A stretch of DNA of 64,000 bases from Elusimicrobiota bacterium (GTDB lineage: Bacteria > Elusimicrobiota > Elusimicrobia > FEN-1173): NCBI GenBank assembly GCA_041917295.1, contig JAYRXX010000006.1, positions 16,876-80,875 of the forward strand, written 5' to 3'. The notes beneath the pieces are model-generated. The model was not told where the DNA came from and ran no database searches. It saw nothing but the letters and a program-made list of their open reading frames with translations. Below, one piece after another: positions 12,166 through 12,489 of this stretch; positions within the stretch are counted from its first letter, which is position 1; each line of letters begins with the position of its first letter. The translations under genes and the position numbers were made by a program.

Positions 12166-12489
12166 TTACTTAGGTGTAATCTTAATCGCCACCACGGGGC
12201 ACACGCTCTCGCAGGCCATGCAGAAAATGCAGGCGTCTTCTTTCGCGGGAGCGGCCTTCTTTGCGGAGGCAGGATGGCCGGGAGTGTCCACCCAGGCGAA
12301 CACGTTCTCCGGGCACGCGTCCAAGCAGGCTCCGTCGGCGATACACAAATCGAAATCAACCGCCACCCACGTTCCGTGAATACCCAGTTTTGCGGGGGGC
12401 TCGTACGGGCTCCAAATATCGTATCCAAACTTCTCGTCTTTTTTGACGACCTTCTGGTTCTTCTGAAAATCCGGGTCAATTGCCGCCAT
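12166..12489 (-). CDS. Dicluster (7Fe-type) ferredoxin resembling archaeal zinc-containing ferredoxins
   Basis: [12 protein letters not shown] (CxxDxxCxxxCP) and [12 protein letters not shown]; [17 protein letters not shown] and TPGHPAS.KKA segments match the recalled Sulfolobus/Thermoplasma Zfx sequence. Confidence 0.88.

Follow-up and report, generated by a model that had tools for sequence, protein, structure and literature searches.

The locus raises three linked questions: how a bacterium came to carry a ferredoxin of the archaeal zinc-containing type (Zfx), whether the protein has kept its zinc, and with which enzymes it would exchange electrons. The gene lies in a 64,000-nucleotide stretch of an Elusimicrobiota genome, called the window below. 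An earlier reading of the letters alone (the sequence-only reading) had described an N-terminal extension followed by the motifs CxxDxxCxxxCP and CxxCxxCxxxCP, and all three were found as described in a 107-residue open reading frame. The parts of the gene are as follows.

12166 to 12489, minus strand: coding sequence of the Zfx-family 7Fe ferredoxin, 107 amino acids, ATG start, stop codon included (ORF list)
12370 to 12489, minus strand: N-terminal extension, residues 1-40 (1xer alignment, multiple alignments, pLDDT)
12310 to 12345, minus strand: first cluster motif, C49-x2-D52-x2-C55-x3-C59-P (read from the sequence)
12196 to 12231, minus strand: second cluster motif, C87-x2-C90-x2-C93-x3-C97-P, [4Fe-4S] (read from the sequence; Fer4)
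12250 to 12252, minus strand: codon of Ala80 (agc), at the site of Asp76 in 1XER, where KKADP reads KKAAP (DNA check, alignments)

This is a real, constrained gene and not a chance ORF. Against the same-genus genome G349, 51 of its differences are synonymous and 4 are non-synonymous; among close orthologues dN/dS was about 0.02-0.04, a mark of purifying selection. For the N-terminal extension alone, the two comparisons that allowed an estimate gave 0.017 and 0.049, and the zinc-less extension is therefore still strongly constrained. A GGGAG ribosome-binding site was read at 12497-12501 (minus strand), 7 nt before the ATG. The spacer between tatA and the ferredoxin gene measures 109 nt and contains a promoter-like site, TTGACA-18 nt-TAAATT, at 12533-12562 (minus strand), about 44 nt 5' of the ATG; it is a pattern match only, with 10 of 12 consensus positions, in a consensus scan that gave 2 sites against 0.3 expected. 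This site suggests that the gene may have a transcription start of its own. Behind the gene, the scan found a terminator-like hairpin with a T-rich tail at 12001-12024 (minus strand), about 140 nt past the stop codon and ahead of rpsB, which could be the end of the ferredoxin transcript or part of the rpsB leader. A 130-residue ORF at 12156-12548 (minus strand) was rejected as a gene, since it reads through the conserved ferredoxin sequence in a different frame. That the contig is contaminated or mis-binned was likewise rejected: within the 64 kb of the window, the gene has a bacterial nuo operon on one side and rpsB-tsf-pyrH on the other, and at least five further genomes of the same family repeat this arrangement.

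By sequence and predicted fold, the protein is a soluble di-cluster ferredoxin of the archaeal Zfx (Sulfolobus/Thermoplasma) family, with one [3Fe-4S] and one [4Fe-4S] cluster predicted. When PDB sequences were searched with phmmer, the best matches were 1XER, the Zfx of Sulfolobus tokodaii (E 4.6e-42, about 62% identity, aligned over residues 4-106), and 2VKR, the 3Fe-4S, 4Fe-4S plus Zn ferredoxin of Acidianus ambivalens (E 2.3e-40, end-to-end alignment). Behind these two came generic Fer4 domains with E-values of 1e-15 or worse, weaker by more than 25 orders of magnitude. Homology with the archaeal Zfx, as the sequence-only reading had proposed, is thus borne out over the full length. Pfam recognised only a generic Fer4 (E 8.1e-13), and the best NCBIfam match, the equivalog NF041165 (ZFX_Thplmales), scored 88.4 bits (E 5.3e-25), below its curated cut-off of 280 bits; this model targets specifically the proteins of Thermoplasmatales, which are longer. 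Replacement of the second Cys by Asp, as in CxxDxxC, is the signature of a [3Fe-4S] cluster. Among 29 homologues all seven cluster cysteines and the GIHG motif were invariant, and D52 was conserved in at least 90%. An AlphaFold2 model built with these 29 homologues reached a mean pLDDT of 87.1, with 84-93 in the block of the N-terminal extension, and Foldseek superposed it on 1xer and 2vkr with TM scores of 0.93-0.97 and an rmsd of 0.8 A. The predicted fold is a ferredoxin core with a packed extension of three strands and one helix, the Zfx fold. PDB matches, fold and ligands for a [3Fe-4S] and a [4Fe-4S] cluster all place the protein in the Zfx family, the cluster content being predicted.

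The family traits that are kept include the N-terminal extension of about 36 residues and the central loop (TPGHPAS.KKA.P). Set against 1XER and 2VKR, the protein has about 60-62% identity over its full length and the same extension, loop, motifs and predicted fold. It differs in that three zinc ligands are replaced (K/D, Y and A), with a two-residue insertion in the ligand loop, and in that its host is a bacterium and not a thermoacidophilic archaeon. Ferredoxins of the Azotobacter FdI / Mycobacterium FdxA type also carry one [3Fe-4S] and one [4Fe-4S] cluster in about 100-110 residues, as the window protein does, but their extension is C-terminal, not N-terminal, and they are without the Zfx loop. 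This type was absent from the significant PDB matches of the window protein.

In 1XER the zinc is bound by His16, His19 and His34 of the extension and by Asp76 of the core (PMC2946596). Alignment to 1XER and inspection of the codons gave the same picture for the window protein. The ligand loop of its extension contains the two-residue insertion (KKDEKFGY), and according to how this insertion is placed, His16 corresponds to K20 (HMMER alignment) or to D18 (MAFFT). His19 is replaced by Y23 (codon 12421-12423, gta, Tyr, checked on the DNA) and Asp76 by Ala80. His34 is retained as H38 in GIHG (codon 12376-12378, gtg, His, checked on the DNA). One of four zinc ligands is left, and a strict definition of a zinc-containing ferredoxin does not include this protein. 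The sequence-only reading, which had seen only the GIHG His remaining and KKADP changed to KKAAP, was correct on both counts. Of 79 homologues, 51 carry the full set of four ligands (written HHHD below). In each of the remaining 28, two or more ligands are gone together, and no homologue lacks a single one; such joint loss is to be expected of four residues that act as one functional unit. We infer from this pattern that the window protein holds no bound zinc. In practical terms this is an annotation pitfall: the protein belongs to the Zfx family, yet should not be called zinc-containing.

In order to see where and when the site was lost, the surroundings of the gene have to be considered. Its neighbours in the window are these.

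11131 to 11919, minus strand: rpsB, downstream neighbour, start of a bacterial rpsB-tsf-pyrH cluster (ORF translations)
12599 to 12775, minus strand: tatA, upstream neighbour (Pfam TatA_B_E, E 6e-17)
12778 to 13860, minus strand: polyprenyl diphosphate synthase of the quinone side-chain type, ispB (Pfam polyprenyl_synt, E 3.3e-62)
13767 to 23876, minus strand: nuoA-B-C-D-H-I-J-K-L-M-N, an 11-subunit complex I without nuoE/F/G (Pfam on 8 subunits, ORF order)

Within the phylum, which was searched exhaustively (401 genomes), the ferredoxin gene occurs in 23 genomes, all in four families of one class. These are f1, the family of the window genome (8/8), f2 (1/1), f5 (6/6) and f11 (7/8); the gene was found in none of the 32 other families, including f3 (0/118), f4 (0/47), f8 (0/48) and f16 (0/89). 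In f1 it always lies between (nuoN-)ispB(-tatA) and rpsB-tsf, the rpsB neighbour recurring in other genomes of the family. The locus is the same for zinc-less genes (G349, G062, G122, G385) and for zinc-type genes (G168, G371, L023), and HHHD is kept at this same ispB-tatA-fdx-rpsB locus in G168, G371, G306 and L023. It is kept also in f2 and in part of f5. We consider it probable that the zinc site was lost at this locus itself, in an ancestor common to genera g1 and g2. When the zinc-region columns (the ligand loop and the Asp76 column) were removed from the alignment, f1 formed one clade with 99/92* support, and K10, F46, D84 and V100 are common to the window protein and the zinc-containing f1 genes and are not found in f11.

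The main competitor is an import, in which a zinc-less allele from an f11-like Elusimicrobiota or a Heimdallarchaeota-like donor replaced the resident zinc-containing gene. With all columns included, the window's clade does group with the zinc-less f11 genes and not with f1, nested among them at 95/83* and 98/87*; in a tree of 184 rows all GY..KKAAP forms make up one 95* set, and a string of 10 residues is common to the window protein and the metagenome protein P0028. Even with all columns, though, a tree in which f1 was held together was not rejected (p-AU 0.168), and the combination of insertion, Tyr and a small residue arises independently, as in f5. An imported allele would also have to occupy the position of the zinc-containing f1 genes: in f11 (L004) the ferredoxin gene follows acyl-CoA dehydrogenase-etfB-etfA, whereas that of the window lies between nuo-ispB-tatA and rpsB and not beside etfBA. 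Given the locus, the monophyly of f1 without the zinc-region columns and the core positions, an import is unlikely. The loss of the zinc site in the window lineage, at a different locus, appears separate from that of the etfBA-linked zinc-less gene.

The two contexts differ also in the electron-transfer flavoprotein itself. The f11 EtfA (L004:2893-3924) is a 343-residue, domain-less protein with the Zfx-type ferredoxin directly after it, and EtfA of the window genome (contig C28:10240-11616) has its own N-terminal 2x[4Fe-4S] ferredoxin domain, with no ferredoxin gene after it. In f5 (L003) the ferredoxin gene lies beside sdhAB, between sdhAB and panD; an IS110-family transposase (L003:6297-7349) was observed 2 kb from it.

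Family f5 provides a second case. One starred clade, marked by core residues peculiar to f5, contains both zinc-plus and zinc-less states, and the loss in f5 is therefore independent. Judging from the sequences, the phylum appears to have lost the zinc site at least twice, once in the window lineage and again, independently, elsewhere. The bacterial forms share a recurrent solution, an insertion of one or two residues together with Tyr for His19 and Ala, Arg or Ser for Asp76, to which g1 and g2 add a Phe or Tyr. One f1 genome, G385 (L102:1501-1815), followed a different route, GEEDGVAVWG...KKAAP with no insertion. Its motif is almost that of a haloarchaeal clade without the zinc site (GEENGVAVWG...KAEP/KVEP/KANP), which looks like convergence between bacteria and archaea.

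What holds the extension to the core in the window protein is most likely aromatic and hydrophobic packing instead of zinc, by analogy with archaeal isoforms. Both Sulfolobus metallicus and Acidianus ambivalens have natural isoforms without zinc (FdB; Rocha et al. 2006; Janssen et al. 2001, in PMC2946596), in which a hydrophobic core is reported to take the place of the structural metal; the recurrent bacterial solution would fit such a replacement. The sequence-only reading made no mention of these isoforms. Likened by that description and not by sequence, the window protein shares with FdB the Zfx architecture, the replaced zinc ligands and the retained extension. As described there, FdB is a paralogue beside the zinc form in archaea, in contrast to the window gene, which is the only copy and stands in a bacterium. 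A search for FdB-type paralogues gave a single, zinc-type copy in Acidianus copahuensis and in Sulfolobales HS-7, and one copy in each of two Heimdallarchaeota genomes. As an example of gene transfer between the domains and of the replacement of a metal site, the window gene is instructive, but it has precedents, zinc-lacking isoforms in archaea being already known.

Alternatively, the site may have been remodelled, with His38 and carboxylates of the inserted KKDEK segment still binding zinc or iron. His38 is indeed invariant even among the zinc-less forms, and D18, E19 and D24 lie within the former ligand loop. We regard such a site as improbable, however: in every independent loss three ligands, including the sole core ligand (Asp76 to Ala), are replaced together, the residues that take their places (Tyr, Ala, Gly, Ser, Val or Arg) are not metal ligands, and archaeal isoforms without these ligands were zinc-free by experiment, according to the passage of PMC2946596 that cites them (refs 53, 54). 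Packing without a metal is retained below.

The origin of the gene was approached through its wider distribution. The closest named proteins are from Elusimicrobia; in the ESM Atlas, the large clusters that lie nearest are archaeal. When prokaryotes were scanned with one genome for each species, 582 hits were obtained, of which the best 80 loci were inspected. Seven of these 80 belong to Elusimicrobia, the only bacteria among them, and 73 are archaeal, from Nitrososphaerota, Bathyarchaeota, Thermoplasmatota, Halobacteria, Sulfolobales, Nanobdellota and Heimdallarchaeota. Bacterial phyla other than Elusimicrobiota were covered through these best 80 loci, and more distant copies in them could lie below the best 80 of 582. 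Identity to Nitrososphaerota proteins is 60-68%, which is as close as archaeal phyla are to one another; a metagenome protein, P0040, was assigned to Nitrososphaerota/Aigarchaeota by cluster membership. The Zfx family has been described as limited to some archaeal orders (PMC2946596). A literature search for Elusimicrobia together with Zfx-type ferredoxins returned nothing specific, and no paper describing the family in bacteria was found.

A maximum-likelihood tree, which for this ferredoxin rests on about 100 columns, placed most archaeal phyla in starred clades of their own and the Elusimicrobiota sequences in two, f5 and f1+f2+f11. All Elusimicrobiota fell on one side of a branch with 66/77 support, amid Nitrososphaerota, Bathyarchaeota, Sulfolobales and Nanobdellota. 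Transfer from archaea to bacteria is favoured because the family is overwhelmingly archaeal and the gene is confined to 23 of 401 Elusimicrobiota genomes of one class. The economical reading would be one or two transfers from archaea into the ancestor of these families, followed by vertical descent. The presence of HHHD in f2, in part of f5 and in most f1 genera indicates that the zinc site was lost after the transfer, inside the bacterial clade. The sequence-only reading had suggested the transfer, or shared ancient inheritance, of a ferredoxin already without zinc, as opposed to a broad, vertically inherited bacterial clade. The archaeal background and the narrow distribution favour the transfer, but the HHHD relatives in f1, f2 and f5 speak against a zinc-less state at the time of the transfer. 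Likewise, the nearest homologues are vertically inherited, but they form a small four-family island within an archaeal family. An ancient bacterial ferredoxin, common with archaea since before the split of the domains and inherited vertically without transfer, is very improbable: a root on the branch that has all Elusimicrobiota on one side is compatible with the best tree, but this branch is weak and was broken by Heimdallarchaeota sequences in other tree runs, within the phylum 378 of 401 genomes and 32 of 36 families lack the gene, Elusimicrobia were the only bacteria among the best 80 loci of the 582 hits, and the distance to Nitrososphaerota is of the inter-phylum archaeal kind.

To consider the role of the protein in the cell, the whole genome, whose assembly is 98.7% complete, was examined for other carriers. 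Apart from NuoI and a FixX-like protein, a whole-genome motif scan found no other small Fe-S carriers. Fer2 (plant-type 2Fe-2S) gave a single match, inside HydA. Flavodoxins were covered through PF00258, one of several flavodoxin families (others are PF12724 and PF12641), and it had no match. The ferredoxin thus appears to be the only free low-potential carrier, ferredoxin or PF00258 flavodoxin, found in the genome. Possible partners are encoded outside the window (PFOR, OFOR and oxidase contigs C21, C49, C78, C57 and C75). They comprise a 1212-residue PFOR, two two-subunit, delta-less alpha-beta 2-oxoacid:ferredoxin oxidoreductases (OFORs) and, as terminal oxidases, cytochrome bd and haem-copper enzymes; no E2 component of a 2-oxoacid dehydrogenase was found in the genome. 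A HydABC-type [FeFe] hydrogenase is encoded on contig C21, the site of the genome's only NuoE/NuoF homologues. The nuo cluster of the window, in which nuoD abuts nuoH, is the single complex I of the genome and ends 1.3 kb upstream of the ferredoxin gene. As a whole, this bacterial genome combines respiration with an oxidative metabolism that depends on ferredoxin in the archaeal style.

Sulfolobus Zfx is the electron acceptor of a delta-less OFOR (PMC2946596), and the window genome is like Sulfolobus in having delta-less alpha-beta OFORs. The same paper states that the route by which reduced Zfx is re-oxidised is unknown even in Sulfolobus. Here, electrons would probably pass from PFOR and the OFORs to the ferredoxin and from it to complex I and the HydABC-type hydrogenase. 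Its position beside a complex I without NuoEFG makes the protein a concrete candidate donor for that enzyme class. The contexts in other families (etfBA in f11, sdhAB in f5) count against assigning complex I as its partner, and a specific link with complex I is not supported, NuoD occurring in 202 of the 401 Elusimicrobiota genomes and the ferredoxin in 23, without co-distribution; the assignment of partners is circumstantial. Nor is co-transfer with the alpha-beta OFOR supported: an orthologue is present in 26 of 401 genomes, including members of f9 and f10 without the ferredoxin, and is missing from several f1 genomes.

Taken together, we consider it likely that an archaeal Zfx was acquired with its zinc site intact, that the site was dismantled in place, and that the protein now likely serves as the sole free low-potential carrier of the cell. 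Under this scheme, an ancestor of a few Elusimicrobiota families would have gained an archaeal gene that still encoded all four ligands of the structural zinc. On the way to the window genus, the two-residue insertion carrying Phe21 would have arisen, and His19 would have been replaced by Tyr23, His16 by Lys or Asp, and Asp76 by Ala80. Aromatic and hydrophobic packing would then hold the extension, as in the natural zinc-lacking isoforms of archaea. The ferredoxin would take electrons from PFOR and the two delta-less two-subunit OFORs and hand them to the NuoEFG-less complex I, from which they would reach quinone and the bd or haem-copper oxidases, the HydABC-type hydrogenase offering an alternative outlet. 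An archaeal electron carrier would in this way have become the sole ferredoxin of a bacterial lineage that respires with ferredoxin-dependent 2-oxoacid oxidation, as aerobic archaea do.

On a wider view, the zinc site may have been lost at least four to five times, in the window genus, f11, f5, G385, haloarchaea and a Heimdallarchaeota-like group, and the losses may have used two recurrent solutions only, insertion with Tyr and Ala/Arg, or Glu-Val with Glu/Asn/Ala. It is a tentative and rather doubtful extension of this that loss of the zinc site in Zfx is a repeatable adaptive switch and not decay, and that the protein may also be the long-sought direct donor to the NuoEFG-less complex I. If true, the Elusimicrobiota clade would be a natural experiment on how a hydrophobic core can take over from a buried metal. 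Closely related genomes, some with the zinc-plus and some with the zinc-less orthologue at the same locus, offer matched pairs for the contribution of a structural zinc to a ferredoxin, be it stability, oxygen tolerance or dependence on zinc supply.

Two further observations were made among the homologues. The ferredoxins of two Heimdallarchaeota MAGs (L008:2710-3021 and L015:4001-4315) are zinc-less and group with those of Elusimicrobiota f1/f2/f11, not with those of other archaea. With the zinc columns removed they are sister to f1/f2/f11 at 91/76, and in the 184-row tree they form a 99* clade nested in the 95* zinc-less set. They share a CPE[DE]V motif, and the metagenome proteins P0028 and P0054 belong to the same observation. 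On these sequences, either the gene crossed between the domains a second time, in a direction that is uncertain, or the Heimdallarchaeota forms are mis-binned. The other observation concerns the metagenome proteins P0037, P0053 and P0073, which have a Cys at the position of the first zinc ligand (CHHD) and may have an alternative Cys-His-His-Asp zinc site.
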